Shown piece by piece: positions 1,349 through 26,494 of a stretch of 64,000 nucleotides of DNA. Position numbers and translations under genes: made by a program. How positions within the stretch are numbered: position 1 is the first letter of the stretch; every line of letters begins with the position of its first letter. The notes under the pieces are model-generated. The model did no database searches. It was not told the origin of the DNA and worked only from the letters and a program-made list of their open reading frames with translations. The stretch is from positions 64,001 to 128,000 of the forward strand of contig JABCTZ010000011.1 in the NCBI GenBank assembly GCA_018238155.1, read 5' to 3'. Source of the DNA: Candidatus Heimdallarchaeota archaeon. GTDB lineage: Archaea > Asgardarchaeota > Heimdallarchaeia > JABLTI01.

Positions 1349-1382
1349 AATCCACTTTAGCAAAAAGAAAGAGAAAAGAAAG

Positions 1383-1417
1383 TGGTGGACCGGATGGAAT
1401 TTGAATCCATGATCTCC
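1383..1417 (-). repeat. att-like direct repeat 1 (tRNA-Ala 3' half)
   Basis: tggtggaccggatggaatttgaatccatg (1383-1411) is identical to 26387-26415, then atctcc vs gcctcc. Confidence 0.92.
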
Positions 1418-5154: not shown

Positions 5155-5330
5155 TTCTTTATAAAATACTAAATGAAAGCCAAAAATTAGTGAATTGTAA
5201 TATCAGATAAAGAAAGGGAAAGAATATTTCTCATTTAAATATCAAATGACTCTTTACTCCCTTTTCCTTTTATTTCAACAATTTTGTTTCTTTTTTCCCC
5301 TTCTACTTAATATAGAAATAAAAACAAAAA
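5155..5330 (+). repeat. 176-bp non-coding direct repeat, copy 1
   Basis: Matches 9361-9536 with two visible substitutions. Confidence 0.9.
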
Positions 5331-5365
5331 GAAGGATTATAAAAGACGGAAATTAGAAAAGAAAG

Positions 5366-5399
5366 TGGTGGACCGAGTGGAATTTGAATCCACGTCCTC
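5366..5399 (-). repeat. att-like direct repeat 2 (variant tRNA 3' half)
   Basis: tggtggaccgagtggaatttgaatccacgtcctc. Confidence 0.85.
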
Positions 5400-5422
5400 T
5401 TTTTTGAAATGGAAAACTGAAA

Positions 5423-9360: not shown

Positions 9361-9536
9361 TTCTTTATAAAATACTAAATGAAAGCCAAAAATTAGTGAA
9401 TTGTAATATCAGACAAAGAAAGGGAAAGAATATTTCTCATTTAAATATCAAATGACTCTTTACTCCCTTTTTCTTTTATTTCAACAATTTTGTTTCTTTT
9501 TTCCCCTTCTACTTAATATAGAAATAAAAACAAAAA
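9361..9536 (+). repeat. 176-bp non-coding direct repeat, copy 2
   Basis: Matches 5155-5330. Confidence 0.9.
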
Positions 9537-9661: not shown

Positions 9662-12598
9662 ATGAGAAGGAAGTGGCTAATGATAAAGGAAATTGAAAGT
9701 AAACTTGAAGAATTTCTATCTTTTGCAAAAAAATTGTCTGGTAGAGAAAAACAAGAAGCCCAAACTTTCTTGAACCATTTATTCGAAGCATTTGGACATG
9801 AAGGGGTTATTGAGTGTGGAGCTTCTTTTGAAACCTCAATAAAAATCGAGAACAAAACCTATTATGCAGATTTGTTTTGACCTGAAAAAGTATTAATAGA
9901 AATGAAATCAAGAGGGGAAGATTTAAACAAACATATAAGTCAAGCTAAATTCTACTGGATAAATATCTATAAAATGCGACCTTCTTATGTCATTTTGTGT
10001 AATTTTGATGAATTTTGGATATTTGATTGGAACAAACAACCCGATCCAATTGATAAAATACATATAGATAATTTAGTAATTAGATGGAGAGCTTTATCAT
10101 TTCTTTACACTGGTGGAGATATAAAACCTATATTCAATAATGATAGAGTTGCTGTTACAGAAGTAGCAGCACAAAAAATAGCAAAATTATATTTGAGTCT
10201 AATAAAGAGAGGTGTAAGTCATGAAAAAGCTCAAATGTTTACACTTCAATGTTTAGTTTGTTTTTTTGCTGAAGATACTGGTTTATTTCCAGTCCGAGGT
10301 TTTTTCACAGAATTAATCCAAGATTGTATAAATGGAGCTAATAGTTACGATCTTTTTAAATTACTTTTTACTAAGATGAATTCAACAAAAAAAGAAACAG
10401 GAGGTAGATTTAAAGAAGTTTCATATTTCGATGGTGGTATTTTTGAAATCATACAACCTATTGAATTAAACAAGAGTGAATTGGAAAATTTACTCGCAGT
10501 AGCTCTTCATGATTGGTCTAAAATCCAACCTGCTATTTTTGGCAATATATTTGAATCAAGTCTAAGAAAAGATGAACGTCATAAATATGGTGCTCATTAT
10601 ACAAGAGAATCAGACATTATGAAAATAATTGAGCCAACTATTCTGCGACCGATTAGATTAAAAATTAATGAGGTAAAATCACTAAAAGATTTGGAGAAGA
10701 TTTGGATTTCTTTAAGTAAAATGAGAATTCTAGATCCTGCTTGTGGAAGTGGTAATTTTCTCTATATAGCGTTTAGGGAACTAAAATATTTAGAACTTGA
10801 TTTAATACGAAAAATGATAACTGATTATCCATCACTTGAGAAGAAAAAATTCTCTTTACAATCAAAAATTAAATCAACACAATTTTTCGGAATTGATACT
10901 AATCCTTTTGCAATAGAACTTGCCAAAATAACATTATCATTCGCAAAGAAAGATGCAATAGATACTTTTAATGAATTCAATAATCAGCGTTTGTTGCATT
11001 ATGATGGTGAGAGTCCTTTGCCTTTTGATAATCTAGATACAAATTTCATCATTGATGATGCCCTATTTATTGAATGGCCGGTTGCAGATATAATCATTGG
11101 TAATCCTCCATTTCAGTCTAAAAATAAGATGATTGAAGAATTTGGACCAGAATATGTGGAGAAGTTAAGAAAACAATTTCCAGATGTAAATGGTAGAGTA
11201 GATTACTGTGTTTATTGGTTCCGCAAAGCTCATAACAAGTTAAAAGAAGGTGGTAAAGCAGGGCTTGTTGGTACAAATACAATCAGACAAACTTATTCAA
11301 AAAAAGATGGGTTAGAGTATATTATTGAAAATAATGGGACTATTATAGAAGCTGTTTCCACTATGCCATGGAGTGGGGAAGCTCAAGTTCACGTTTCCAT
11401 TGTAAATTGGATTAAGGGAGAGATAGATGAATCTAAGAATAAGAAATTACTATTCTATGATGAGAAAAACCCCAATAATTTACTTGAGGAATATGATCTA
11501 GAATGGATACCTTCTTCTCTATCACAAAAAATAGATGTCATCTCAGCTAAAGAATTGATTACAAATAAGAATTCAGGAACTTGTTACCAAGGTCAAACTC
11601 ATGGACACAGCGGGTTTATTTTATCTCGACAACAAGCTAAAGATATTTTCAAAAGGGAACCTGAAGCAAGAGAAATAATTTTTCCTTACTTAATAGCGAA
11701 CGCAATGCTGGGTAATATAAAATCTCGTCCAGACCGATTAGTGATAGATTTTCAATCGATGTCTTTATTTGATGCACAGAGATTTAAAACCCCATTTAAA
11801 ATAGTAAAACAAAAAGTTCTACCAACAATTGAACAAAAAGCTGATGAAGAAAAGAAGTTATTTGAAAAACTAAAGAAAAAAGATACCGTTCGTCAAAATC
11901 ATTTAAAGAAATGGTGGTTATTTTGGAGAACTAGAAAGGATTTAATAAATCAAATTCAGACTATTCCAAGATACATTGCTTGTAGTCAGGTTGCAAAAAG
12001 ATCAATATTTGATTTTGTCTCATCAAATATTAGACTAAATGCTGCACTAATAGCATTTCCTTTAAGTGATGATTATTCATTTGGTATTTTACAGAGTTTA
12101 TTTCATTGGGAATGGATAAAAGCACGCTGTTCAACTTTGAAAGGAGATTATAGATATACAATAACAACAATCTATAATACATTTCCCTGGCCTCAATTTG
12201 GTATTATAAACGATATTGATATTCAAGATAACTTGGATGAAAAAATTGAACTTTGTATTGATGTAGCAAATAAAGCTAGAGAATTAAGAGTAACGCGGAA
12301 CAAACTAAGAGACGAAAAACATTTGTCATTAAGAGATATGTATAGAACACTAGAATTGCCTGGAGATAATATTCTAAGAAAATTACATGAAGAACTAGAT
12401 AACGCTGTAAGAAAAGCTTATTCCTATGGATTAATAGATACAGAAAAAACTTTTGATCCATTAAAACTACTTCTTCAATTGAATAACGCTTGTAAACATT
12501 TTGAAGAAGAAAATAAAAACCTTATAAAACCTGGGTTGCCATTTTTCTGTAAGAAAAAAGAATTCTATTCAGATGATTGTATAAGTTATCAAATATAA
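9662..12598 (+). pseudogene. MmeI-family (type IIL) restriction-modification enzyme with in-frame TGA in the nuclease domain; MTase/TRD part (9902-12598) open
   Basis: EKQEAQTF..YADLF*PEKVLIEMKSRG is one frame; GAHYT, LDPACGSGNFL, IIGNPPF, YRYT..YNTFPWP, H..LD.AV..AY. Confidence 0.88.
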
Positions 12599-12689
12599 AC
12601 CTAAATATTTCTAGACACTCTTTAGAATTAAATCATTTGTCTACTTATTCTAAAAAAAGAGTCTACAAGAAGGAAAAGAGAAAAGAATG

Positions 12690-12722
12690 TGGCGGACACA
12701 GTAGAATATGAATCCAAGCTCT
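12690..12722 (-). repeat. att-like direct repeat 3 (degenerate tRNA 3' half)
   Basis: tggcggacacagtagaatatgaatccaagctct, preceded by gagaaaagaa as at 1371-1380. Confidence 0.65.
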
Positions 12723-12726
12723 TTTG

Positions 12727-13596
12727 TTAAATATTAAATAGATCTTTATTTTCCTTCCCTTTTTTAGTAACATATTCCCTTTTTTCTTCATTATAATAAA
12801 TAGTATCAATAGGTAGTATATCTTTAGGTATTGGAGTATTTGCTACTGGATTAATATAGAGAGTTGCTTTCTTATCAGTCAATGTAAACGCATTTAAATT
12901 TGTAGTAATTAAGATAGCACTCACATCACGATTTCTGTAAAAAAAAGTGTTATTTTTTTCATCATATTTTCCAATTTGACCTTCAATAATTAATTGTATC
13001 TCAGATTCTTCAATTGACATAACAAATCCATAAATAGCATCCTTAATTGTTTCATTATCAATTGGTAATCCATTAGTACAGATATTCAAAGCTAAAATGT
13101 ATGGTTTATTTTGTAAAGAATATTTTGCTGGGTGTTTTTTATTTATTGCAACTCTCAATATTTCAATTGGTCTTGTTTCGTGTATCGTTAAGGAACCAAC
13201 TCTTCCTTCTTTTGTTTCCTGTTGTGATTTTTTTTTACTTACTTTTGCTTCAAGATAGAATTTAGTTTGTTTCCGTTTGGCATAAAAATCTGGAGTATTT
13301 TCCTCATTTTCTATATCCGGATGAATTTTAATATCATAACCACTTAAAAATAACATCTCATGTAAATAGAGTTCAAATAGTGCTCCTCTATGAACTCCAA
13401 TTTCATTTGCGATAAATCTTCGGTAAACCTCACAATTTATATTTTCGGGAAATCTATTAAACCATTTTTGTAATCTAAATTTGACCTTAGTAATTTCTGA
13501 ACTATCTGATTCAAGTAAACAACAATACTCAGAATCATTCTTTTTCTTCTCATTACAATTTTCTTTTCGTTCTGAATTAAATAATTTAAGGTTCAC
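12727..13596 (-). CDS. PD-(D/E)XK nuclease-fold protein
   Basis: ALFEL..TPDFYA..FYLEAK motif order. Confidence 0.65.
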   Translation of the reverse strand: MNLKLFNSERKENCNEKKKNDSEYCCLLESDSSEITKVKFRLQKWFNRFPENINCEVYRRFIANEIGVHRGALFELYLHEMLFLSGYDIKIHPDIENEENTPDFYAKRKQTKFYLEAKVSKKKSQQETKEGRVGSLTIHETRPIEILRVAINKKHPAKYSLQNKPYILALNICTNGLPIDNETIKDAIYGFVMSIEESEIQLIIEGQIGKYDEKNNTFFYRNRDVSAILITTNLNAFTLTDKKATLYINPVANTPIPKDILPIDTIYYNEEKREYVTKKGKENKDLFNI

Positions 13597-13604
13597 TGTT
13601 TTTC

Positions 13605-13775
13605 CTAATCCTTTGGATATGATATTTCAACTTCTTTAGTTATAAATATTAAACCGTTGTCGTCTTGTAAGAAGATTAAATCATCTCCTTTACAAAGATC
13701 TAATTTATCTCTTACTGTTTTTGGTAATGTAATCTGACTTTTAGTTGCTAATTTAGCACTTCCGAGAAATTTCAT
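13605..13775 (-). CDS. AbrB/MazE/SpoVT-family DNA-binding protein (56 aa, not in ORF track)
   Basis: MKFLGSAKLATKSQITLPKTVRDKLDLCKGDDLIFLQDDNGLIFITKEVEISYPKD; GGTG upstream. Confidence 0.9.
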   Translation of the reverse strand: MKFLGSAKLATKSQITLPKTVRDKLDLCKGDDLIFLQDDNGLIFITKEVEISYPKD

Positions 13776-13918
13776 TAATTGCACCTATATAATTATTTGA
13801 TTCAAGTAAAATAAACCTTTCCTTAAAATCAATTAAAAATAACAATATTGGTAAAACCCAATAATTTGGGAACCCCTTAAATAAAACCTTCTCCTATATA
13901 TCTATAGGTGATAAGAAA

Positions 13919-16054
13919 ATGGCTCTAGTAATAAAAAACAAGATTTCTTCATACACAAAAGAAAACAGAGTACTCATTTATCAAAAAGAGAAAAAAATTA
14001 GAGGTTCTCATTATAGTATTTATTCGGATGGAACAATAGAGATTAGAGGAAAGCTATTGAGTAGTACTAAATTTACTATACCAAAAGATTTGTTCCAATG
14101 GTTTGAAATCTCCAATCCATCAAGGATATTTTATGTGGAAATCAAATTGTTTCCAATAAACACCTATAGTGCTGATATTAAAGCACGGTTTTTATGCGAA
14201 AAATATGGAACCTTCATTCAATTTTTGGAACAGCTAGATCTAAAGATTGGAGAACAAGTTTTATTTAAACTTGATTTTAGAAATTCGAATATCAAACCCA
14301 CTCCTAAATTCCATAAAACACTAGCTTTGTTAGAATTACATTCCTTACCCTCTATTGAAACTCTAACTTATCTTTTTACTGGCGGTAAAGGGAATCGCGA
14401 GTTCTCTCTCTATAAAGATAACAGAAATGTTCTTTTTGTAAAGGCTAATGGGACGCTAAGAGATGGTGGTTCAGTCTCTCTGTCACAAGAATTGGGATAT
14501 TATATTGAGGATTGGTTTGAAAAAGATCATTTAGTTTACGCTTCCAAGGATAAAGAAGAAGCAAAAATAATAGAATCTAGAATAATTCGAAAAAATACTA
14601 CAAGACATCTTGAAAAATGCATCTATTTTCCTTATCAAGGGAAAAGTAAACCAATTTCATTTGTGATCTCTTCCCATGAATTTCAGTTAACAAGAGATGC
14701 AATTCAAGACTTTGATATCAAACAATCTTTAACAGAAAAAGGAATATCAATAAGTCGTTTTAAATCACATTCTCTTTTAATTGGAAATCATTGTGATTAT
14801 AAATTTGAGGCTAAAATTAGAAAAATTGCTCATCAATTCTCTTCGAATTATGATTGGTTCAATTCTCCTGAGGTTTACTTAGAATTTAATAATCAAAATT
14901 ATACCATTCAAGGAAATTTCAAAACAGTTGACAATATCATTACAGAAAGAAACCTACTAAAAATACTACTAATGGAAATAAAGACATCTGATAAAAATTT
15001 AGGAAGTGAATTAGAATATGCTATTGCGAGTATATTACACACTAAAAGCATGTTTAATCGAGACTACGTTTTTCCTATTCTTTTTATCAACCAAGATACT
15101 AAACGATTGAATGGTAGTTTAATCATAACTGAAAATTTCGGTTTCTCTTGCGGAATTATACTTATTGGTCCCGAAAAGGCATCTTCCCTTCAAGAATCTC
15201 CTCAAAAATTATTGAGTATTTTGAATGATTACACTGAAAAAATGAATATTCTTTCCAAAGAACGGTCAAAACTAATTCATCCCATTTCAGGCAATATAAC
15301 AACAAATATACTTCTGCAGAAAGAGGCATATCAACTTTTAGCTAATTCAAAACTTTCTGAAAACAAGATAATTCCTATTTATTGTTTATTAATGGGAATT
15401 ACTCTTACTGATTTTTGGTTATTATATAGATATTTTAGAGAATCAATTAATAATTGTCAAATGCAAAACCAGAGTGATTTTGGTATTCTTCAAGATGTTG
15501 AAAAGAAATCACCAAATTTAGCAATTTTTGATTATTTACATAATCTTTTAGTGGAAAAGGGCTATTTTGCTCTTTTAGCGCTAAAATCAAAGTTACCTCA
15601 AAATGAAGACTTGCACATTCTTTTACAAAATCAAGATCTCATACTTGAAAGATTCCCAGCTTGTATAAAAATTCGTGACATCTGGAAACGAAAGAGAGGT
15701 AAGGGAACTGCTTATGAACATGAAATAAGAAAGAAATTAATTAAGAATGGATATCAAGTAGCTTCCAATGTTATGCTTTCAAATCTTAGTAAACCATTTG
15801 AAGTTGACCACTTAGCTTTTAAGAATAACGCAATTACTCTTGTAAGCTGTAAAGATAGACGAAATATATCTTATGAACCAGATCTTCCACATTTGATAAG
15901 AGAAGCAGCAAACGTTCTTGAGTTTCGCAAAAACCTTCTTAATATTGATACTGCAATTCTTTATGTAAAAGTCAACCCCAACTTCTTTCACAATCAACAA
16001 TTACTGTTTGGACAGAAACCTTGGGTCAAAAATGTTGAAATAATAATTGAATGA
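13919..16054 (+). CDS. Multidomain protein with C-terminal restriction-endonuclease-like domain and a possible second central PD-(D/E)XK domain
   Basis: C-term GTAYEHEI..GYQV..FEVDHLA..LVSCKD; central FEAKIR..TVDNII..LMEIKT. Confidence 0.6.
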   Translation: MALVIKNKISSYTKENRVLIYQKEKKIRGSHYSIYSDGTIEIRGKLLSSTKFTIPKDLFQWFEISNPSRIFYVEIKLFPINTYSADIKARFLCEKYGTFIQFLEQLDLKIGEQVLFKLDFRNSNIKPTPKFHKTLALLELHSLPSIETLTYLFTGGKGNREFSLYKDNRNVLFVKANGTLRDGGSVSLSQELGYYIEDWFEKDHLVYASKDKEEAKIIESRIIRKNTTRHLEKCIYFPYQGKSKPISFVISSHEFQLTRDAIQDFDIKQSLTEKGISISRFKSHSLLIGNHCDYKFEAKIRKIAHQFSSNYDWFNSPEVYLEFNNQNYTIQGNFKTVDNIITERNLLKILLMEIKTSDKNLGSELEYAIASILHTKSMFNRDYVFPILFINQDTKRLNGSLIITENFGFSCGIILIGPEKASSLQESPQKLLSILNDYTEKMNILSKERSKLIHPISGNITTNILLQKEAYQLLANSKLSENKIIPIYCLLMGITLTDFWLLYRYFRESINNCQMQNQSDFGILQDVEKKSPNLAIFDYLHNLLVEKGYFALLALKSKLPQNEDLHILLQNQDLILERFPACIKIRDIWKRKRGKGTAYEHEIRKKLIKNGYQVASNVMLSNLSKPFEVDHLAFKNNAITLVSCKDRRNISYEPDLPHLIREAANVLEFRKNLLNIDTAILYVKVNPNFFHNQQLLFGQKPWVKNVEIIIE

Positions 16055-16503
16055 GAGTTAACTATATGAAACAAGATGTTCCTTTACTTGAAAGTTTATT
16101 CGGAACAAGTGATTTACCAACAATTGAAAAATATCTAACAGATGTAGAAGAAGAAACTAGAGCCAAAGCAATATGGGCATTAACGAAATTTTCTGTGGGG
16201 ATAACTTTTGAACAAGTTAGAGAAGAATTAATATCTGCAAAAAAAGACCGAACAAGGATTTTTCTAGCGGGAGCTTTATACCTTCTAAATTCTTCTTATC
16301 AATCACGAGAAATGATTTTCCTTTCCAAATATTATTTACAACATTATTTTGATGTAGAAAAAGAAGAGTTAAAAGTTGATTTTACAGGAGATTATGGACG
16401 TTCAGCAATAGTCATAGGACTTATTCTCTGGGATGTGGGATATGAAATATTTGCAACAAATACCTTGGACTTTTACGGTTTAAATTGGCTAATTGAAAAA
16501 TAA
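16051..16503 (+). CDS. Hypothetical protein (HEAT-like)
   Basis: ATGA overlap with upstream gene; YLTDVEEETRAKAIWAL. Confidence 0.55.
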   Translation: MRVNYMKQDVPLLESLFGTSDLPTIEKYLTDVEEETRAKAIWALTKFSVGITFEQVREELISAKKDRTRIFLAGALYLLNSSYQSREMIFLSKYYLQHYFDVEKEELKVDFTGDYGRSAIVIGLILWDVGYEIFATNTLDFYGLNWLIEK

Positions 16504-16555
16504 ACAGTTTTTCTTTTTCAATATCTGTTTTTGAAGTGGAGAATATAACACTAGA

Positions 16556-18190
16556 TTGGAAGTACATTTTGAAATGAACCAACAAAACTTTCTCACCTGG
16601 AAAACTGATCCATTTCTTATAGATCCAATACCCACAAGGAAAAATGATTGGTTAACTGCGAATAAGCTATTAGAACAAAAAGAGCAGTCAAAAATTTTCC
16701 TCAAAAATGATATCCTCAACCTTTATTCCATAATGGTTCGCAAAAACGATTTTCTTGCCGGAGAACGCCTTATTCAACGATTGCCTTATGTCTCTTTACC
16801 ACCTGATTTAGCTTCTAGTTTGCGTAAACCGTCACTAAAATTAGCTGAGAGATGCCATTACTATTTTCAAGATACTGCTATCAATTATTCTATCAAGAAG
16901 TGGCAGCAAAAGATTATTGATTATACGGAGAAGCAGCATCGACTACCATTTCCTTTATTTAGGATGAGTGATTTCTGGCAAGACTTTCTAATGCAAAAGT
17001 ACGTTCCCTTCCAATCTGCACGAGGAGAAACCTTCCATTTACCAACTATTCTCTCTAAAGATTTAGCTTATTTCTTAGGAGTAGTTATTGGCGATGGTCA
17101 TTTGAACTATTATAATATCGAATTAGTGGACTTTTCCCAAGAGCACACGATTATGTTACAAAAATTAGCCATGAAATTATTTGGTATTGAGGGTGCAATT
17201 TCTGGTGAGAAAAAAGTGTGGTTGTTACATTTGAATAATAAATGGCTTGTACGGTTAGCTAATTTCCTAACGGATCAACCAATTACCGGGAAAAAATACC
17301 ATGCTTTACGCGAACCACTTATTTTTACGTCGGATGAGAATCTTCGATGGGAATTCTGGAATGGAGTATTAGATGCAGATGGCAGCTATAAATCACAGAT
17401 CAATTTCTGTTCTTCATCAAAAAAATTCATAGAAGCATTTGGCTCATTTCTAGATTCATACAATTTTGACTATAAAATACGAGAATTAACCTCTGACTTG
17501 GGGAATGGTTATTCTTTAAATATTAAAGCGAAACATAAACATTTTTTTAGCCAATTCATACAACCAAGACATCCAATAAAGCAAGAAGATTTTTCACAGC
17601 ACTTAAATCGTCAATCAAACAAAAATCTCAATAATCCTACATTCAAGCGTATGTATATTAAAGATATTAATCCTCAGACACTAGTTACTATTAATGATAC
17701 TGCTTTTTTTAATTTCGAACTCATACCTATGCTCAATGTCACAAATTGCACCAGCTATTTACGAAAGTCTCGTGAAACTAACCAATGGACACAGCAAGAT
17801 TTAGCTAATTTTCTAGAAATTCAAAAAGGACGATTAGCAGCATATGAATACACCGGAAATCTCCCTATTGCTTATCTTGTCAAACTTCTTCCAATTATCC
17901 CTAAGAGTACTCCTCATTTAATGCTATTTCTAAAACGGAACAAACATAATTATTTTCGTTCACGAAAAACAATTGCTAAGTTAGATCTAGAACCAACTAG
18001 TAGTTTGCTTTCTTTAATGAAATCATTAGTGTTCTGTAAGGATTATATTACGATTAAAAATAAAAGACCAATTATTACTGAATTGAAAGACCAATTTGAA
18101 ATAGAAATTGTGAAAAAGAATCTAATTAAAAATTCGGTTTTGCATCGATTTATTAAAACATTTTTTTTGCTGAGTACAGAACGAGAATAA
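16556..18190 (+). CDS. Free-standing double-motif LAGLIDADG endonuclease-like protein with C-terminal XRE-HTH
   Basis: LAYFLGVVIGDG and FWNGVLDADGS; LRKSRETNQWTQQDLANFL..LAAYE. Confidence 0.8.
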   Translation: MEVHFEMNQQNFLTWKTDPFLIDPIPTRKNDWLTANKLLEQKEQSKIFLKNDILNLYSIMVRKNDFLAGERLIQRLPYVSLPPDLASSLRKPSLKLAERCHYYFQDTAINYSIKKWQQKIIDYTEKQHRLPFPLFRMSDFWQDFLMQKYVPFQSARGETFHLPTILSKDLAYFLGVVIGDGHLNYYNIELVDFSQEHTIMLQKLAMKLFGIEGAISGEKKVWLLHLNNKWLVRLANFLTDQPITGKKYHALREPLIFTSDENLRWEFWNGVLDADGSYKSQINFCSSSKKFIEAFGSFLDSYNFDYKIRELTSDLGNGYSLNIKAKHKHFFSQFIQPRHPIKQEDFSQHLNRQSNKNLNNPTFKRMYIKDINPQTLVTINDTAFFNFELIPMLNVTNCTSYLRKSRETNQWTQQDLANFLEIQKGRLAAYEYTGNLPIAYLVKLLPIIPKSTPHLMLFLKRNKHNYFRSRKTIAKLDLEPTSSLLSLMKSLVFCKDYITIKNKRPIITELKDQFEIEIVKKNLIKNSVLHRFIKTFFLLSTERE

Positions 18191-18636
18191 TGTTTAGAGA
18201 TGGTTAAGAGTTCCTCTGTCATTTTGAAAAATTGAAGTATTTTGGAAATGCTCTCACAGCTCAGAAGTGAGAGTGAATGTTCTTGACCAAAACTCTATCG
18301 CTGAACGCTCCACTCGTGCGACCTAAAAGCCCACGCTTCGGTGGTCTTTTTTAACGGTCGTCTTCGACACGAAAACCAGAGAGAAATCAAAGAGATGATT
18401 TTGTCGTGAAAAAATACCCAAGAAAGAACATGAAAATAGGAAAAAAAGCAGAAAAAGAGATTCTAAAGGGACTTAGAATAACCTTCCGCTATACAAAAAG
18501 AAGCCTTCTCCTGCCTTATTTTCAGGCTGATTTTTCGAGACTTTTTGTTTTTTGACGAATTCTTAACATACAGTAAATTCTTGTTTCTGTTTTTTGGCGA
18601 ATTTTGTGCTTTTTAAACAAAATTTGATAGAATTAG

Positions 18637-19275
18637 GTGAGAATAATGACTTTGGAATCATCTGTGACGCAAGAACAGCATATTCATAAGGATTTATCTA
18701 GTGCTAAAGTTAAAGTGACAAACACAGTTCAAACTTTCTGTAAATACTTAATTGACAGCGCATTGAATCATGGCAGATATTATTATCCTTCATTGAATAC
18801 TTTCAAATTTGATGAGAAATTGACATTAGTCTCAAGAACAATAGATCGCTTAGTGAGATTTTTAGTTCAAGTTAATATTCTAACTAAATTAACACGATCG
18901 AAAACACAAGCTTATCAAGTCAATGTCAATAATCCATTATTCCACCTTATTTTGAGAATATATCATCCTGTTCATCCAATTACCATTTGTACAAAACAAG
19001 ACATCATTTCAATAAAAAGAATTGAAGAACTACAAAGCGGTGTAGAGCACTTGAAACATGTTTTTAGTCTATTAGAATCAAAAGAGGATCATAGATTAGA
19101 ACTTCATAGAGATTTGTTGGATGAAATAACTGAATATACTACAGTCTCAGATATTTCAACAGAAGATCTAAAAGAGAAATTAAGGTCAATCATCTTAGGC
19201 TCTAGCACAAGTGCAGAGATTAACAACTTTTCCATATTAAATGAATTTTTGCTAGAGTATAACAAGGGGGATTAA
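18637..19275 (+). CDS. Winged-helix protein
   Basis: VSRTIDRLVRFLVQVNILTKLTRSKTQAYQVNVNNP wHTH wing pattern. Confidence 0.6.
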   Translation: MRIMTLESSVTQEQHIHKDLSSAKVKVTNTVQTFCKYLIDSALNHGRYYYPSLNTFKFDEKLTLVSRTIDRLVRFLVQVNILTKLTRSKTQAYQVNVNNPLFHLILRIYHPVHPITICTKQDIISIKRIEELQSGVEHLKHVFSLLESKEDHRLELHRDLLDEITEYTTVSDISTEDLKEKLRSIILGSSTSAEINNFSILNEFLLEYNKGD

Positions 19276-19276
19276 T

Positions 19277-21350
19277 TTGGGATTCATAAACACTCTACCT
19301 AAAGCCATCACTACCGTTCTTCGAGATTATTCTTTTCCTTCTGGTGTTGATAAAGACACCATTCGCAAAGCTGTTAGGTGTGATGAAGACCTGCTTTTTG
19401 TTACACCAGATCTAGATGAGCAATTGCAGGTTGCAGTTACTTTAGCTCTTCTAAATGCTCGATTTGCCGACTCATCATCTATGATTATTGTGCGAACTTC
19501 TGATGATGCAAGAAAAATATACAGTATACTCAACCCACAACATCAGGTTAACGTTTCTAGTGATAGTGTAACAAATGAAACTATTTCTCCACCAATAGAT
19601 AAATATGCCATTCGTGTTGCTTCCACTTTTTCCAAATTTAAGGGAAATAGCTTCTCTTCAGCTAATGATTGTATAATAATTACAAGCTATGATTGCTTGC
19701 TTCGAAATTTACTCTATCGAAAAAGTTCCGAAGTGGATTTAAAGAACAGAATTACTTTACCACATACAAATGCCTATATTTTCGTTGACCCATTTGGCGA
19801 AAATAGATCTCTACGAAGAGCTTTAGAGAGCTTCATAACTTTTGATATAGATAGCATATTGTTTTTCAAGAGAAGAACAAATAACCTTAACATCAGAATG
19901 CATTATATCTCACCTGGCATAGTTTCTTTAGATGAACAGAAGAATATGCTAAAAGTAACATCAACAGTCAAAATTTCTGGAAATCTTGAGCTTGACTTTA
20001 GTTTTTCAACGGATAGACATGACATTAGAGAAAATCTCCAATCTGTTCTACCATATTTAATGTTATTAAGACTTTATTCTGGGCATCCAACTAAAAAACA
20101 ATTAACACGTCGAGTGCAAAATTCGGTTAATTATCGTTTACTTCAAAACACTCACGAATCAAAAACTAATCCTGAATTTCTTCAGGAAGTTTTAATTGAG
20201 ACATTGTTTCAATCAACTGATTCTACTGAATGCTTATTTGAATCGTATCAGCAAAGTCTTGGAAAATTCGCTCTTGCATTAAGAGCTAATGGAAATTCAG
20301 GAAAATATATCCTCACACCATTTGGCAAGAAGTTTCTCATAGCCTCAACATATTTTAAAGAAATACAAGATGATCCCATTAGTGTTATATTGGATATTAA
20401 AAACAGAACACAGAATGATATTCTAGATTGGAACAGCATCTCAGAAATATTCCATAATTTTACTAATGGAAAATTAGCTTACGATGATCTGCAAATACTG
20501 CTAGGGATATTAAAAACAGAAGCGAATGTTGAAGATGAGACAATTGCTAACATTCTATCCAGAACACAAGATAGTTATTCTGTTTTTAAAGTCTGTAGAT
20601 TACTTGCAAGCTTTCAGGATCATATGACACCTGAAGCAAAAAAGAGCTTCAATATCATTAGCAAGGCATTAGGGCAAAATCTTGACACAGTAAATGAACC
20701 GTTAGTAGGAAAGAAAGATAGATTAGCAATCGAGCAAGCGATAAAAGAAGAACTAGAATTTGCTACAGATCCAATGACAAAAGCACAAATTGCTCTAAAT
20801 CTCTCATTATTGAGTTCTGATGTAAAACAAGCAATTGGTTAATATTAAAAAAAATAGTTCGTTACCACTAAAAACTGTTACAGGAAAACCACCAATAGGG
20901 AGAAATGTTACGTACTATTCTACAAAAGAAATCCCAGAGCATTTCTATAAAAAATGCGGTGACTGTTACTATTTTAGCAAAAATTATTGCATTTTCTGGC
21001 GACGAGTGAAAGAGACTGCAGAGCGAAAAGTCCCAAAAGACAAAATGGGCTATATTTCAACCTCAATTCTTAGAAAAAATACTGTTGCCTGTGAAGCATT
21101 TCTAGAAGTAGAAACAATGGTGATACATTTCACTATTGATGAATTCAATAAAACAGTAACAAAAAGATTTGATGGCTATACTGAAGATGGGGAGGAAAAA
21201 TTTACTCATTTTTGCCCAATCTGTAGTAAGCAAGGAGAAATGGTACCGCTAAAGGCATTAGGCAATGCTGCGTTTCCTCAGCAGGGATCAACTCCGACAA
21301 GATGTCCAAGATGTGGTTCATCATTTAAGCTTTATCAGGAAAGAAATTGA
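19277..21350 (+). CDS. Degenerate SF2 helicase-like / wHTH / Zn-finger protein, split by a probable 1-nt frameshift at 20837-20838
   Basis: ORFs 19277-20842 and 20835-21350 join into a continuous wHTH (PMTKAQIALNLSLLSSDVKQAI-VNIKK..GRNVTYYS); Cys motifs CGDC, CPIC, CPRC; N-terminal RecA-like strand order without Walker motifs; YILTPFGK. Confidence 0.55.
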
Positions 21351-21366
21351 AACATTTAGTAGTTAA

Positions 21367-22872
21367 GTGATAAAAATGACTGAAAAAAATACTGGAAAAC
21401 AACAAATAAAATGTGTGAAAGATAGCAGTCATATACTTTATGACCGGATATACAATTTAACAGGTTTGGCAGCTGAAGAGATAGAAGAAGCAAGAACTAA
21501 TTTAGGAACTCCTATTTATCAAGGCTATGATGTACGATTGATCGATGATGATCTGTTTATTGGAGATGTAAGGTATAAACTAAAGGATATTAAATTCATC
21601 TTTGATTATGCAGGCATTCAAGAAGAGATTAAACAACGATTGCTTGATTATGGCTGTTATTATGAACGGAAAACTAATTTGAGTGGATGGTTTAATGTCG
21701 AAAGAATCGAGCCAAAAAGAGCTGTTTATGTTGATGCTATTAGATTAAGCAATGGGTTCAACAATCTCTATCTAAAATCAGTGATCAAGAGTGACCTTAG
21801 CATTATCTTCGCACTGCAAGGAATGATACCCGATCAAAGAGTGCTAAAGAAGTATGTAGATAAAATTGGTGATGCATATCTCTATGGCTATCACAGTCAT
21901 GCAAATAAGCTATGCAATTCAGCAGAAGGTTTAGCAGCAGATGTTCTCTGGGAATTCACTAACAAGCTGATAGAACCTTACAACTTTAAAATAAGTAATC
22001 GAATTTCTGACCGACTCTGCCAATTGAGACGCATGGTTGGAAATTATAGCAGTATGGCAAAAACAGCTACAGATGCCTTATTTAACACCACATACCAACT
22101 CTTTGAGGAAGAAATATGGAAGATTCTTGAAGAGAAAAAAATTAATTATTTGGGAGTTGGCGGTTTTTCACATTTCAGTTATTATTCAGACCTTTCTTGG
22201 ATGGGATTGCCATTAGATCTTGGTGATGCATTAAAGAAAGGAGGGCACTATACATTAGTCGATACTATATTAGCTGAAGAAATAACTCATGAAGATATTA
22301 AGCGGCTAACTGCATTCAAAGGAGAGGATAATTATACTGTTACGAAATATGGGTGTGACATCCTCTATGAGAAGAAGGAAGAACTTTTCGAAAGCTCATG
22401 CTTTTATCGTGGGAAACAATATTCATCTTTTAGAGAAGCTTGCAGGGAAGAAATTGACAAATTTGATCGCCTATTATCGAATATCGGTGATAGATTAGAA
22501 GAGGAGCATCTGTCTATTAAAAGCCCTGATCTAGGGAATAATTTAGCCGTTAAACTCTGGCGATTAACGTTAGACTGGGAATATTTGCCAGCAAAATTGA
22601 GGGAGAACCTGGGAGAAAGTGTTTTTCAAATATGTCAAGAAGAGATCCAAAAGCTTGACTTTCAGCCATTAGTATGGATGCGATCGAAACACATAGAACA
22701 AAGAGTGAATCAGGAAATTGCTAATTTTGAGGAACTTGCATTCTTATTTACTGATAGGGAAGAAAAGCACCACCAAAAACATGGCAGAAAAATCGGTCAA
22801 TTATCACCAATCACTAAAGAATTCAGTGAAACATTATTGGAGTTACCTGTATCATGGATAAACTTGGAGTAA
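21367..22872 (+). CDS. cas1: Highly diverged Cas1 homolog (not linked to a visible CRISPR array)
   Basis: AEGLAADVLW (E187), TDALFNTTYQLFEEEI, GGFSH (H269), LPLDLGDALK (D284/D287), followed by YTVTKYG..FYRGKQYSSFR; the motif order matches Cas1/casposase. Confidence 0.75.
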   Translation: MIKMTEKNTGKQQIKCVKDSSHILYDRIYNLTGLAAEEIEEARTNLGTPIYQGYDVRLIDDDLFIGDVRYKLKDIKFIFDYAGIQEEIKQRLLDYGCYYERKTNLSGWFNVERIEPKRAVYVDAIRLSNGFNNLYLKSVIKSDLSIIFALQGMIPDQRVLKKYVDKIGDAYLYGYHSHANKLCNSAEGLAADVLWEFTNKLIEPYNFKISNRISDRLCQLRRMVGNYSSMAKTATDALFNTTYQLFEEEIWKILEEKKINYLGVGGFSHFSYYSDLSWMGLPLDLGDALKKGGHYTLVDTILAEEITHEDIKRLTAFKGEDNYTVTKYGCDILYEKKEELFESSCFYRGKQYSSFREACREEIDKFDRLLSNIGDRLEEEHLSIKSPDLGNNLAVKLWRLTLDWEYLPAKLRENLGESVFQICQEEIQKLDFQPLVWMRSKHIEQRVNQEIANFEELAFLFTDREEKHHQKHGRKIGQLSPITKEFSETLLELPVSWINLE

Positions 22873-23093
22873 TGCTCTTTTTGCTAAAGGAGTACAATGA
22901 ATTTGGCACTATTCATCCAAAGAGCGCAAAAGAGATCTCTATAGAGGTGGAATTGGCTCCCAGTGAAACATATCTTACTCTTGAGACATTACAGCAAGAT
23001 GGATTGATCTGGCGAGTGGGTAGGAAAAATCTTTACAGGTATGGTATTAAGGAAGAATCTTTAGCTCATCTAAACAAGCTATTCTCTGCTTAA
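22872..23093 (+). CDS. Small winged-helix protein
   Basis: TAATG coupling to the Cas1-like gene; SAKEISIEVELAPSETYLTLETLQQDGLIWR..YRY. Confidence 0.7.
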   Translation: MLFLLKEYNEFGTIHPKSAKEISIEVELAPSETYLTLETLQQDGLIWRVGRKNLYRYGIKEESLAHLNKLFSA

Positions 23094-23107
23094 TTAATGG
23101 TAAACAA

Positions 23108-23404
23108 TTGCCGTCTGAGATGTTAATTGATTATCAGAAGCTTGATGAAGTAGCAGAAAATTATGAGAAGAAGTTTGAGATAGAGAAACAAGAAGGGCTC
23201 CTTGTGAAGGAGATCAAGGCATTGCTTAGTCAACTGGTCTTTATTGAATATAATAACCGATTCGACATGATTGATTCAGCTGTTGATGATATTGTTGAGG
23301 CTTGTTCTCCTGAAAATTTAGATGAAAAATTCGAGCAATTTTTAGAGGATAAGCTTGAATCAATTTGGGAATATATTATCAGTGCAAGATTGGTGGAGGG
23401 ATAA
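23108..23404 (+). CDS. Small acidic helical hypothetical protein
   Basis: 98-aa ORF tightly packed in the operon. Confidence 0.6.
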   Translation: MPSEMLIDYQKLDEVAENYEKKFEIEKQEGLLVKEIKALLSQLVFIEYNNRFDMIDSAVDDIVEACSPENLDEKFEQFLEDKLESIWEYIISARLVEG

Positions 23405-23407
23405 GGA

Positions 23408-25735
23408 ATGTCTCGAGGAATTCTTGTAAAATCGGTTTTTGATTTGCCACCATCAGTGTGTAAAGTATCTGATTGCTATGTAGGCGATGACGAAGTTGGA
23501 TTAGAGAATATAGGAAAAAGTATCCAAGAGCTATTCTCACACAAGCTCTACTCTTATCAATTAGAAGCAATTAGAACTGTACTCAAAGGAAATGATTGTT
23601 TCCTTGCTGTTGGAACAGGTTCTGGAAAATCTGAAGCATTTTTATTCCCAATTTTGGAGGATATCGTTGCCGGAAAAATTAATTGTGCGATTATAATTTA
23701 TCCAACAAAACAACTAGCAGAGGATCAAGAACAACGCATTGCAAAATACTGCAATAAGATTCATGAAACGACCGGCAAAAGAATTACTTACAGTAGGTAC
23801 AATGGTGATTTAACTCGAAAGGAAATTGACTTTGTAGAAAAAAGTAAACCAAATATTATTCTTGCAACTATTGACAAATTATTTTATCGTTTCTTTAAGG
23901 AAGGCAATGAAGACTTTCTTGATTGGCTGCTCAATGCTGGTGCTTTCGTTGTTGATGAGATTCATGCCGGCTCAGGAGGATATTTAGATCATGTTCGAGA
24001 AATAATTTCAATCTTGAAAAAGATTAATCCAACTTTAAGAGTTATTCTTGCTTCCGCTACTGTAAAGGAAGTGGAAACTTTTCGCGATAAATTTCTCCCA
24101 TCAGCTCAAATAATTACAGGAAATGCTACAAGAGGTTCTGTTAGAGTGATGATTCTTCAGCCAGAGTCAATAGAAGATCTGCTTTTGGAAAAGATAGACC
24201 CCTATTTGTGCAAAGTAAAAGGAGTTTGCGTAATTTTTGTTGATGATATTCGAAAGGTAGGTGAGTTGGTTGCAAAATGTAATGAACTGTATAAGAAAAA
24301 AACAAACATACCTGATGAAATCCTAAGAATACATTCACCATTTGCTTGCATTAATAGTCAGTTAAATAGTCAAGAGAAAACATACGTTGTAAAAGGAGTT
24401 CATAATGGTACAATTAGGTTTGTGTTTACAACGTCCTTATTGGAACTGGGGATGGACATACCAAATATCGTTCATATAATAAATATTTCTTGGCCCATTA
24501 CGGGAGTTAATGGTCTATTGCAACGATTGGGGAGATTGCGATTTGTAGACCTTTCCGAGAAAAAGAATTTCTCATTAGTGCTAAATCCAGAAAGAACAAT
24601 TGATGAATATTACTTGAGCCATCCTGAAAAAATAGAAGAAATCATGATGAAAAACAAGACTGAACGAATATTATTTGACTCAAAATCATTGCAAAGAGCA
24701 CAAGCATTCGTTCTCTTAAGACTTGTTCTTGGTGTAACTAAAATTAAAGATATCTTATCCCTATGCACAGATGAGCTAGATAACGGAATTACACGAACCG
24801 CAATATCATTACTTTTCGCCAAAGGTTTGTTATCAACTGAAAATCATCACTTGCCGTTTCTGGAAAGAACCTTAATTATAGCAGAAAGAAATGAAGTTAA
24901 TGCTTTTATTCGAAAGCATCGTATTCGCTCAACTGAATACCAATGGGAAATAATACTGAAGAATTCCAAAAATCAAGAAGAAAAAATCGCTTCAATAGAT
25001 GAACGACGAATAATCTTTTCAGCTTTGCAAAGGAATTTGTTACATCTAGGAAGCAAAGGGAATGTTTTTCGAGTAAAAAGTTTGACTAATGAAAAAGTGT
25101 TCGTTGAAAAGCTAAATATCATCAAAACAAATATTGAACGAAACAAAGTAAAGCCACCAATTTTTATTATCGATGGTCAATCTAGAACGCAGCAATTTGA
25201 ACAGCTAAATATTAGATTTGGAAGGATGATCATTCGCTGGGAAACAAGTGAAATAAAGGAATATTCTCGAGATGGACAATTACTTGAAAACCAAATGAAA
25301 AAGTCAACTCAAGGAAATGACACATTAGTAGTTACTGATAATGAAAAGCGTCAAAATCACATTTGGGATGAAAAAACAAGTGGAGTGCTCATAGAATTTG
25401 TGAACATCTCAAAAGCTCTTACCAACAAACAAAAGAAACAATCACTAAGGCTATTTAGAGAATTACTGGTGAAAAGTATTGAGCTAGAGCTTCACATCTC
25501 AGAATCATCATTTCGCACATATTTGAATAATTTTGAAAACAAAATTGCTCTTTATGATCGAGGTGGGGAGCTGGGAAATGCTGAAGCAGTTTTCACACAA
25601 ATAAAACGAGTGCTAAAGCACATGCTCAGCTTATTGCTTGAGAATACAAACGACTCTATACTCCCTCTAGTTGGCAATATCTCGGAAAAATCAATAGAAA
25701 TAACCAAAAAAATGTTAGAGGAGATGGTAAAGTAA
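23408..25735 (+). CDS. DEAD/DEAH SF2 helicase, Hrq1/YprA-like, with a degenerate DUF1998-like tail
   Basis: LYSYQ, GTGSGKS, YPTKQLAEDQ, VDEIH, SAT, TSLLELGMDI, QRLGR; tail IALYDRGGELG without terminal cysteines. Confidence 0.85.
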   Translation: MSRGILVKSVFDLPPSVCKVSDCYVGDDEVGLENIGKSIQELFSHKLYSYQLEAIRTVLKGNDCFLAVGTGSGKSEAFLFPILEDIVAGKINCAIIIYPTKQLAEDQEQRIAKYCNKIHETTGKRITYSRYNGDLTRKEIDFVEKSKPNIILATIDKLFYRFFKEGNEDFLDWLLNAGAFVVDEIHAGSGGYLDHVREIISILKKINPTLRVILASATVKEVETFRDKFLPSAQIITGNATRGSVRVMILQPESIEDLLLEKIDPYLCKVKGVCVIFVDDIRKVGELVAKCNELYKKKTNIPDEILRIHSPFACINSQLNSQEKTYVVKGVHNGTIRFVFTTSLLELGMDIPNIVHIINISWPITGVNGLLQRLGRLRFVDLSEKKNFSLVLNPERTIDEYYLSHPEKIEEIMMKNKTERILFDSKSLQRAQAFVLLRLVLGVTKIKDILSLCTDELDNGITRTAISLLFAKGLLSTENHHLPFLERTLIIAERNEVNAFIRKHRIRSTEYQWEIILKNSKNQEEKIASIDERRIIFSALQRNLLHLGSKGNVFRVKSLTNEKVFVEKLNIIKTNIERNKVKPPIFIIDGQSRTQQFEQLNIRFGRMIIRWETSEIKEYSRDGQLLENQMKKSTQGNDTLVVTDNEKRQNHIWDEKTSGVLIEFVNISKALTNKQKKQSLRLFRELLVKSIELELHISESSFRTYLNNFENKIALYDRGGELGNAEAVFTQIKRVLKHMLSLLLENTNDSILPLVGNISEKSIEITKKMLEEMVK

Positions 25736-25736
25736 A

Positions 25737-26408
25737 ATGCCTGATACAGTAATAATTGGTGATGTTCATCTTGGAGCAGATGGTTGTTTAAAGGAGGAAT
25801 TCAAAGAAGCACTGCTGAGCGTTGCAGAAGAAGTGGATCTAATTCTATTCAATGGTGACTTTATCGATAATTATGGAGAGAAGGGAAAAAAAGCTCTTGA
25901 ACAATTCTTAGAATGGATAGACAATAAAAGTTGGAAAGAAAAAATAGTCTTCATAACTGGTGGTATGGGTCACGAGGGAAATATTCTATTTGATTGTCCT
26001 ACAATTCAAATTTTGCCTTGGGCAATTTTAAACACAAAAGAAGGGCGAATTATTGTCTGTCATGGACATAATATTGGTCTGGTGAAAAAAGATGATGAGA
26101 CGTGGGTAGAAGCATCCTGTCGACTTAAGCAGCGCTTAGTGCGCAATGGTTCTGAGTTCTTGCCAGAGATTTTATCGACAGACAAGATTATTATCAGCCA
26201 CACTCATGTACCATTTTACAAAATGGATAATGGTATGTTTGCAACAGGGGGATGGCGAATAAAAGAGGACTGGTCTGAGGACTATATCAGAAGGAATGTT
26301 GGAGTGTTTATCATAATAGATGATGAAGATAGAGATGACCCAATAAAAATGAAAAGATGGTTAAATGATAAAAAGGGAAGAAAAATTGGTGGACCGGATG
26401 GAATTTGA
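25737..26408 (+). CDS. Calcineurin-like metallophosphoesterase
   Basis: GDVH, GDFID, GHE, HGH, SHTH; last codons overlap the tRNA 3' end antisense. Confidence 0.85.
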   Translation: MPDTVIIGDVHLGADGCLKEEFKEALLSVAEEVDLILFNGDFIDNYGEKGKKALEQFLEWIDNKSWKEKIVFITGGMGHEGNILFDCPTIQILPWAILNTKEGRIIVCHGHNIGLVKKDDETWVEASCRLKQRLVRNGSEFLPEILSTDKIIISHTHVPFYKMDNGMFATGGWRIKEDWSEDYIRRNVGVFIIIDDEDRDDPIKMKRWLNDKKGRKIGGPDGI

Positions 26409-26494
26409 ATCCATGGCCTCCTCAATTTTTTTCTTATAGGACGCATCCTTTAAGATTGCAAATGAGGCGATCTACCAGTCTGATCTACCGGCCC
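26387..26494 (-). tRNA. tRNA-Ala(TGC) with ~31-nt intron (about 26426-26456), CCA encoded
   Basis: GGGCCGG/CCGGTCC acceptor stem with G3:U70, D arm, CCTCA-TTTGCA..TGAGG anticodon arm, TTCAAAT T loop; self-complementary intron. Confidence 0.93.

Follow-up and report, generated by a model that had tools for sequence, protein, structure and literature searches.

We describe a 13.6-kb element in the genome of a Candidatus Heimdallarchaeota archaeon (assembly GCA_018238155.1) that adjoins the 3' end of a tRNA-Ala gene and encodes what structure prediction identifies as a far-diverged relative of Cas1. The element occupies positions 12725-26371 of the window—the whole 64,000-nucleotide (nt) stretch analysed here, positions 64,001 to 128,000 of contig JABCTZ010000011.1. 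A first-pass annotation had treated 18637-26408 as one unit, an operon with an orphan Cas1-like gene; this covers only the right-hand 57% of the element, which also holds p289, p711, p150 and the LAGLIDADG protein p544. The tight packing reported for the operon stands, with all eight open reading frames (ORFs) at the coordinates first given and separated or overlapping by 1-19 nt. The genes and other features of the element, together with the tRNA gene taken as its target, are listed below.

12727..13596, - strand: p289, with a PD..E.K-like motif seen by eye only and a homolog at the same place in another assembly, L002
13919..16054, + strand: p711, with a weak NERD-like C-terminus; opens the left-hand module p711-p150-p544
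16051..16503, + strand: p150, invariably directly after p711
16556..18190, + strand: p544, a two-motif LAGLIDADG-type endonuclease with an XRE-type helix-turn-helix tail
18288..18392, + strand: structured non-coding element with two invariant helices and a covarying hairpin
18637..19275, + strand: p212, first gene of the right-hand operon
19277..21350, + strand: gene for a protein of ~690 amino acids (aa) with an N-terminal alpha/beta region, a winged helix and C-terminal CxxC zinc ribbons; broken here
21367..22872, + strand: Cas1-family protein of 501 aa, catalytic set E187, H269, D284/D287 intact
22854..23404, + strand: gene for a ~185-aa protein with a TrmB-like winged helix-turn-helix (wHTH) N-terminus, in the usual cas2 position; broken here
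23408..25735, + strand: superfamily 2 (SF2) DEAD/DExH helicase of the YprA/MrfA-Lhr group, motifs I, II, III and VI intact
25737..26408, + strand: calcineurin-like metallophosphoesterase, whose last 22 nt, stop codon included, overlap the tRNA 3' end
26387-26494, - strand: tRNA-Ala(TGC), the integration target, with a G3:U70 pair, an encoded CCA and a 31-nt intron at 26426-26456

The Cas1-like protein

The 501-aa protein had been taken for a Cas1 on the order of its motifs, an identification that structural comparison upholds. Searches with its sequence return very little: there are zero matches in Pfam, PADLOC, PHROGs and PDB sequences, whether the query is the single sequence or a profile, and the curated Cas1 models (Pfam PF01867, NCBIfam, PADLOC) miss it at E-values up to 0.1; the canonical Cas1 of the same genome, on contig C15, is found by the same Cas1 model at E 1e-74. 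The AlphaFold2 model, built on an alignment of 23 homologs, reaches a predicted local distance difference test score (pLDDT) of 78.8 and a predicted template modelling score (pTM) of 0.73, and the predicted structure contains the two-domain Cas1 fold—an N-terminal beta domain followed by an alpha-helical catalytic domain. When this model was compared by VIA-align with 48,161 representative PDB chains, the top 12 were all Cas1 proteins or casposases (Z 19.7 to 9.8), with A. fulgidus Cas1 (4n06_B) at Z 19.7 and a root-mean-square deviation of 3.3 Å over 255 residues, and casposase 6opm_A at Z 18.9; the first non-Cas1 chain follows at Z 5.2. Foldseek places the same casposase at the top (E 3.9e-9), so that both comparisons recover the Cas1 fold, as the first-pass annotation had anticipated.

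The motifs fall on the catalytic residues. An hhalign comparison of the family profile with 20 canonical Asgard Cas1 proteins extends over 277 columns (E 1.7e-5) and pairs E187, N240, H269 and D284/D287 with the EGxAA, N, H and LDxxE/DxxR/K motifs of Cas1; the E. coli Cas1 equivalents of the catalytic residues are E141, H208, D218 and D221. Within the family (23 homologs) E187, H269 and D284 are invariant; identity to casposases and CRISPR (clustered regularly interspaced short palindromic repeats) Cas1 is 12-16%. The family is also rare, with 6 matches among 1.84 billion representative proteins and ~20 full-length homologs, all named ones from Heimdallarchaeota. Judged by the predicted fold and the profile alignment, the protein is a real, extremely diverged Cas1 relative. 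NCBIfam offers a faint HisZ match alone (E 2.6e-4), a label that we dropped because the fold is clearly that of Cas1.

Modelling of the neighbouring proteins was less informative. Complex prediction for the Cas1-like protein and the downstream 188-aa protein, using the L002 versions, gave a score of 0.00, which speaks neither for nor against binding; and the AlphaFold2 model of the intact 680-aa upstream partner is unusable (pLDDT 46, pTM 0.25).

The tRNA-Ala gene and its islands

The tRNA said to adjoin the operon is indeed there: tRNA-Ala(TGC) scores 52.7 bits with Rfam and is detected by ARAGORN only with introns allowed, having been missed by plain ARAGORN because of its 31-nt intron. This intron is polymorphic—it is missing in one public contig and in the orthologs of G063, G066, G071, G065 and L002; G069 and G070 have it, with a length of 34-36 nt. 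The final 35 nt of the tRNA, together with ~15 nt of flank, occur in the window not only as the live copy at 26372 but again at 1368, 5351 and 12675.

1368..1417, no strand: outermost repeat of the tRNA-Ala 3' end with ~15 nt of its flank, the displaced original end, 20 nt past the stop codon of a GTPase gene; 94% identical to the live tRNA across the 35-nt tRNA part
5351..5400, no strand: second tRNA-fragment repeat, at the boundary of island A and island B; its T-stem departs from the live tRNA by one compensated pair
12675..12724, no strand: decayed tRNA-fragment repeat, left boundary of the Cas1-like element, with the same layout in L002; 66% identical to the right-hand repeat
26372..26421, no strand: repeat on the right, formed by the 3' exon of the live tRNA and 15 nt of adjoining flank

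The site is empty in the relatives G063, G066 and G071, of which G071 belongs to another genus: the ortholog of the GTPase gene that forms the left flank of the islands here (65-1348) lies 8-24 nt from the tRNA-Ala 3' end, and the genes beyond the tRNA are the same as in the window. In the window, by contrast, the GTPase gene and the tRNA are 25 kb apart, and therefore the three islands between them have been inserted into the tRNA gene: island A with a UvrD helicase; island B with an MmeI-like restriction-modification enzyme and other genes; and island C, which is the Cas1-like element. Read against the empty sites, 12725-26371 is DNA inserted in the 3' part of tRNA-Ala(TGC), with a displaced tRNA 3' copy at its far side. 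The same layout, 13.8 kb long and with tRNA-fragment repeats, is found at tRNA-Ala in L002. In the closest relative, G069, the proteins flanking this site are 83-92% identical to those in the window and the element is a different variant, with 44% identity for the Cas1-like protein, 49% for the helicase and 47% for p711.

The junction flanks are low-complexity and A/G-rich, and the islands are exchanged among strains; a target-site duplication and an element-borne attachment (att) copy are indistinguishable there. Public data sets matched the window at contig level only, with a word share of at most 0.25 and no RNA data set among those listed. Four runs compared with the window contained neither a circle junction nor a precise empty-site joint. 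The public run X5 has a 43-kb contig (90-95% similar) that joins window position 14379 to 26253; it represents an 11.9-kb internal deletion derivative in which only the ends of a related element are kept.

The state of this copy is a separate matter: the two genes marked as broken each carry a single-base indel. The ~690-aa gene has a 1-nt insertion at 20833/20834, and contigs from three independent studies are without the base at 20833; the ~185-aa gene lacks one base after 23082, where contigs from three runs carry an extra A. Undoing both indels turns the 521- and 171-aa ORFs into a 690-aa protein and the 79- and 98-aa ORFs into a 185-aa protein, as in all relatives (homologs of the former are intact at 680-690 aa), so each pair that had been listed as separate ORFs is one gene. 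Because of the two frameshifts and the 66% identity of its repeats, the window element is probably an old, inactive copy, unless the indels are assembly errors.

Some smaller observations concern islands A and B. The MmeI-like type IIL enzyme of island B (9902-12598) is 92% identical to its G069 counterpart at the same position, and the Cas1-like elements beside these two enzymes are 25-66% identical; the islands at this tRNA undergo replacement or exchange independently. A 176-nt direct repeat, 99% identical, occurs at 5155-5330 (upstream of the UvrD-like gene) and at 9361-9536 (upstream of a 299-aa gene); its copies lie in two different islands and could represent a promoter region common to both or a small piece of mobile DNA. 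In island A, 37 nt (2164-2200) match the end of the phosphoesterase coding sequence (26322-26358) at 73% identity and may be left over from an earlier element of the window's own subtype (type 1, below).

Copies, subtypes and tRNA neighbours

The window element is one of several in its genome. A family profile search finds 8 Cas1-like genes in these 4.08 Mb, each adjoining a p544 paralog and most of them fused to an N-terminal zinc-ribbon/wHTH part (628-1395 aa). Across 11 genomes of the genus the number of copies runs from 0 to 14, and none of 20 genomes outside the genus (rest of family and class) has any; as far as searched, the element family appears confined to one Heimdallarchaeial genus. 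p544 adjoins the Cas1-like gene in nearly all loci, and this pair is the only constant content of the elements. The ~30 Cas1-like loci sort into four subtypes.

Type 1 (the window's): p711, p150, p544, p212, 690-aa wHTH-Zn protein, Cas1-like protein, 185-aa protein, helicase, phosphoesterase
Type 2: long Cas1-like fusion plus a fused helicase-phosphoesterase (~1060 aa)
Type 3: PD-(D/E)XK nuclease (of a Cas4-containing Pfam family), wHTH protein, 627-aa Zn-ribbon-Cas1-like protein, ~190-aa protein
Type 4: p544 plus a ~700-aa protein

The ~690-aa wHTH-Zn protein of the window is thus a part that other subtypes carry fused to the Cas1-like domain. As cargo the elements carry MazE, Orc1/Cdc6 and a RadA paralog, of which the last two suggest plasmid-like replication and recombination functions; inside the repeat limits of type-3 elements lie an Orc1/Cdc6-like initiator (C6, L054:7066-8244) and a RadA/Rad51 paralog (C13, L055:10368-11477). 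At one locus (L001) a TnpB gene is located ~5 kb upstream of the Cas1-like gene.

Adjacency to tRNA genes recurs throughout the family, as the first-pass annotation had suggested checking. In this genome half of the modules (4/8) end no more than 0.7 kb from a tRNA 3' end, at Ala-TGC, Ala-GGC, Val-GAC and Leu-TAG; positions that close to one of the 43 tRNAs make up 1.5% of the genome, which gives P about 3e-6. Two further modules follow tRNA-Asp and tRNA-Ala(CGC) at distances of 3.5 and 12 kb. Anchored cases in other genomes are at Ala-TGC (twice), Pro-TGG, Glu-TTC and Leu-TAG, the loci beyond this genome being L002; L028 and L033 (Pro); L035 (Glu); L042 (Leu); and L003 (Lys). Related elements are found downstream of at least seven other tRNA species, sister elements occupy different tRNAs, and the orientation is constant, the tRNA 3' end facing the element every time. 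For types 1-3, anchoring at tRNAs is general. The tRNA at L003 (15043-15178, - strand) is probably a tRNA-Lys(CTT) interrupted by two introns, the first behind the anticodon and the second in the region of the T-loop; it was recognised by eye and by folding after Rfam at its gathering threshold and ARAGORN had missed it; the stop codon of the phosphoesterase gene there is 4 nt from the tRNA 3' end.

Other elements besides that of the window are bounded by repeats, namely C43 (56-71 nt, 93%), C6 (42 nt, 88%) and C13. The longest 'repeats', 107 nt in L003 and 489 nt in C13, are duplicated element ends. Trees of the type-1 Cas1-like and p544 proteins disagree with strong support, the window's Cas1-like protein grouping with that of a tRNA-Pro element and its p544 with those of other tRNA-Ala elements; the two halves of the element therefore recombine.

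A different arrangement of tRNA fragments occurs at G000:C19:8809-14158 (L056:2810-8159), where the 3' 33-39 nt of tRNA-Lys(CTT) recur five times beyond the gene at intervals of ~0.9 kb. Between the repeats lie mutually unrelated inserts, each with one toxin-antitoxin (TA) pair (MNT-HepT, MazE-PIN, HEPN-MNT, RHH-PIN) and without an integrase. A C-terminal remnant of the phosphoesterase adjoins the tRNA, and L002 has a similar layout at positions 1-1183. The form is leader-repeat-insert-repeat, like that of an integron or a CRISPR array.

The remaining genes of the window element can be described briefly. p544 has a Pfam LAGLIDADG_3 match and an atlas score of 0.92, and both LAGLIDADG motifs keep the catalytic Asp in 26 paralogs. 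p711 is kept in type-1 and type-3 elements, and an atlas look-up of it gave nothing usable; p289 has neither a Pfam nor a PDB match and resembles phrog_8571, a family of unknown function (E 1.5e-9). The operon had been credited with two wHTH proteins: the 79-aa ORF does have weak wHTH matches, and p212 has none. The Hrq1/YprA-like assignment of the helicase agrees with its nearest solved relative, YprA/MrfA (E 8.5e-16), as does the calcineurin-like label of the phosphoesterase with its Metallophos match (E 1.6e-8).

Between p544 and p212 lies the non-coding element, ~95 nt long, in whose hairpin five sequence variants carry compensatory changes. Each type-1 element has one copy; there are 10 matches in 6 of the 11 genus genomes and zero among Rfam families. 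It might act as the leader of an RNA, as a small RNA or at the level of DNA, as a site. A second conserved block, at ~18480-18560, falls in the same interval.

Integration and its rival explanations

The usual candidates for a joining enzyme are missing. Pfam scans of every ORF of the window element and of the unannotated ORFs of type-3 elements reveal no recombinase or transposase, and PolB is absent from the ORFs of the window and type-3 elements in the same scans, as is TnpB from the window element. The operon proteins give zero Cas2 matches in Pfam, PADLOC and NCBIfam, and the window contains neither an Rfam CRISPR repeat family nor array-like repeats. The whole genome has two tyrosine recombinases, neither near a module, and neither an SSV-type integrase nor a serine recombinase was found genome-wide; none of ~34 Cas1-like loci in five genus genomes shares a contig with a tyrosine recombinase. 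The earlier statement that array, Cas2, PolB and other integrases are lacking is therefore borne out by family scans and by the genome-wide recombinase search. As for the further proposal of a PolB-less, Cas1-mobilised, tRNA-targeting element, the insertion at the tRNA, the multiple copies and the anchoring bear out its mobile and tRNA-targeting part; that Cas1 is the mobiliser is something we infer.

We put at about 0.5 the probability that the Cas1 relative is the integrase of these elements, because its active site is invariant, no alternative has been found and family-2 casposases behave alike: casposases insert their DNA at the 3' ends of tRNA genes, with the T-loop region as the recognised sequence (PMC9939771). 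In the same manner the Cas1 relative would join the element to the tRNA 3' end, with site recognition or cleavage supplied by the wHTH/zinc-ribbon module and the LAGLIDADG protein, and with end processing by the helicase and nuclease. Small cassettes that have no integrase of their own may be served in trans by this machinery.

Several observations weigh against Cas1 as the joining enzyme. Repeat lengths vary, from 33-39 nt in the TA cassettes through 42 nt in C6 and 50 nt in the window to 56-71 nt in C43, and the C13 repeat takes in only 10 nt of the tRNA; a Cas1 ruler is a poorer fit to such variation than integration by att sites or by homology. The four bounded elements lack terminal inverted repeats, their best scores being equal to those of shuffled sequence. 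Two different tRNA-Ala genes have a common motif directly past the tRNA end, a sign that the element may bring its own att copy, and within type 1 the tRNA-Ala site follows the p544 tree, not the Cas1-like tree. p544, equally universal, is apparently catalytically active. In the type-4 pair L044/L045 homology ends without repeats or a tRNA, and the window copy itself is decayed in two reading frames and in its left repeat.

An alternative is that the LAGLIDADG enzyme cuts the tRNA gene and that a circular element with a tRNA 3' copy then enters, either through Campbell-type homologous recombination or through homing; accessory roles in recombination or branch processing would fall to the Cas1-like protein, helicase and nucleases. 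p544 is universal and keeps both catalytic Asp motifs, repeat lengths vary, a conserved motif sits on the element side of the tRNA end, the RadA and Orc1/Cdc6 genes suggest circular replicons, and it is in the p544 tree, not the Cas1-like one, that the tRNA-Ala elements group together. However, the three tRNA-Ala elements are one orthologous locus and not independent; tRNA-Leu(TAG) is occupied by two distant p544 lineages, and sister p544s are found at tRNA-Ala(GGC) and tRNA-Val, and therefore p544 phylogeny does not predict the target either. An invariant, intact Cas1 active site is also left unexplained, and we consider homology-driven entry of this kind unlikely.

The first-pass annotation had also considered a defence role. 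In such a case the genes would form a non-mobile defence or DNA-repair module at a tRNA that is a general hot spot, with the Cas1-like protein as nuclease or sensor. The company that the elements keep is consistent with this—the adjacent tRNA islands carry the MmeI-like enzyme, the UvrD helicase and toxin-antitoxin pairs—and so are the weak matches of the helicase to the PADLOC models BrxH, Cas3 and DruE, as well as the lack of any sign of excision or a circle junction in the four public runs. Some Asgard Cas1 systems have been predicted to be non-programmable defence (Makarova et al. 2020, as quoted in PMC8730458). Yet 8-14 diverged copies per genome, at different tRNA 3' ends, with repeats of their own and in constant orientation, is the behaviour of mobile elements; no integrase that would carry such a module passively was found, and PADLOC systems give zero matches, all of which makes a stationary module improbable. 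A conventional integrase encoded elsewhere in the genome might instead mobilise islands and cassettes in trans, with the Cas1-like gene as cargo. TA cassettes bounded by tRNA fragments and devoid of an integrase do show trans action, and a 525-aa tyrosine recombinase (C19:71490) lies ~2 kb from a 71%-identical paralog of a tRNA-Lys array gene; but G069 has 8 Cas1-like elements and one tyrosine recombinase, G063 has a tyrosine recombinase together with an empty tRNA-Ala site and no Cas1-like gene, and the Cas1-like/LAGLIDADG pair is what the elements constantly share. Mobilisation by such an enzyme seems very unlikely to us.

Casposons are among the known systems closest to the element. Those of family 2 (Aciduliprofundum boonei, Methanosarcina mazei) likewise have a Cas1-family protein with the full catalytic set and neither Cas2 nor an array, integrate at tRNA 3' ends and insert in tandem (PMC9939771), and a casposase structure, 6opm, is the top Foldseek match of the window protein. 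Casposons, however, have PolB and terminal inverted repeats, both lacking in the window element, and a fixed 14-15-bp target-site duplication in place of the variable 33-71-nt repeats seen here; the Pfam Cas1 model misses the window protein, and its partners are a LAGLIDADG enzyme and a wHTH/zinc-ribbon module. By these features the element is best described as a Cas1-encoding mobile element without the PolB, terminal inverted repeats and short fixed duplication by which casposons are recognised. CRISPR adaptation by Cas1-Cas2, with or without Cas4, has the fold and catalytic residues of Cas1 in common with the element; in type-3 relatives the Cas1-like protein is accompanied by a PD-(D/E)XK nuclease of the Pfam family that contains Cas4, and arrays of 33-50-nt repeats stand beside a fixed 'leader-like' sequence, which here is the tRNA 5' part. 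In contrast to CRISPR adaptation there is no Cas2 or CRISPR array, and the inserts are 0.7-14 kb of genes and not ~30-nt spacers.

Diverged Asgard Cas1 homologs were reported in general terms by Makarova et al. 2020, and in the part quoted in PMC8730458 they are likewise described as extremely diverged and predicted to act in unknown mobile elements or non-programmable defence. The aCas1-TnpB transposons of Altae-Tran et al. 2023 (PMC10691335) have TnpB next to aCas1, unlike the window element. We found no literature linking Cas1, LAGLIDADG and tRNA anchoring in Asgard archaea, and no published account of the empty sites, in a comparison that did not extend to the full text of Makarova et al. 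2020. Plasmids and viruses with SSV- or pNOB8-type tyrosine integrases also enter tRNA genes, leave direct repeats of the tRNA 3' part and can pile up in tandem and leave decayed fragments; their tyrosine integrase, whole or split, is not present in or near any element here. The helicase and phosphoesterase, finally, recall repair pairs of a YprA/MrfA or Lhr helicase with a nuclease or metallophosphoesterase: an SF2 DExH helicase directly precedes a calcineurin-like phosphoesterase, and in type 2 the two are one ~1060-aa protein. The pairs belong to repair operons and not to a mobile island, however, and the helicase here scores 89.9 bits against an NCBIfam cut-off of 850, with its C-terminal 400 aa without assignment.

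A bolder version of the Cas1-integrase reading can be drawn from the tRNA-Lys array. Cas1, LAGLIDADG and wHTH/Zn-ribbon proteins together might insert cassettes of 0.7-14 kb beside the tRNA 5' part, duplicating the tRNA's 33-50-nt 3' segment each time and acting in trans too, on cassettes that lack an integrase; arrays like the one at tRNA-Lys would be the outcome. We regard this as doubtful; if true, it would amount to integron-like, Cas1-run gene capture and to a living intermediate between casposon integration and CRISPR adaptation.

Cas1 is known for two roles, spacer acquisition in CRISPR and transposition of casposons, and a third kind of Cas1-based element, with a LAGLIDADG partner and aimed at tRNA 3' ends, would widen them. 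It would also provide a testable system for a Cas1 integrase that duplicates a repeat beside a fixed leader, the step that the casposon-origin hypothesis for CRISPR needs: natural empty and filled tRNA sites exist, the target is defined and the proteins are small enough to express. For the organisms themselves, these elements make up a sizeable share of the accessory genome and of the tRNA-linked islands in this Heimdallarchaeial genus.

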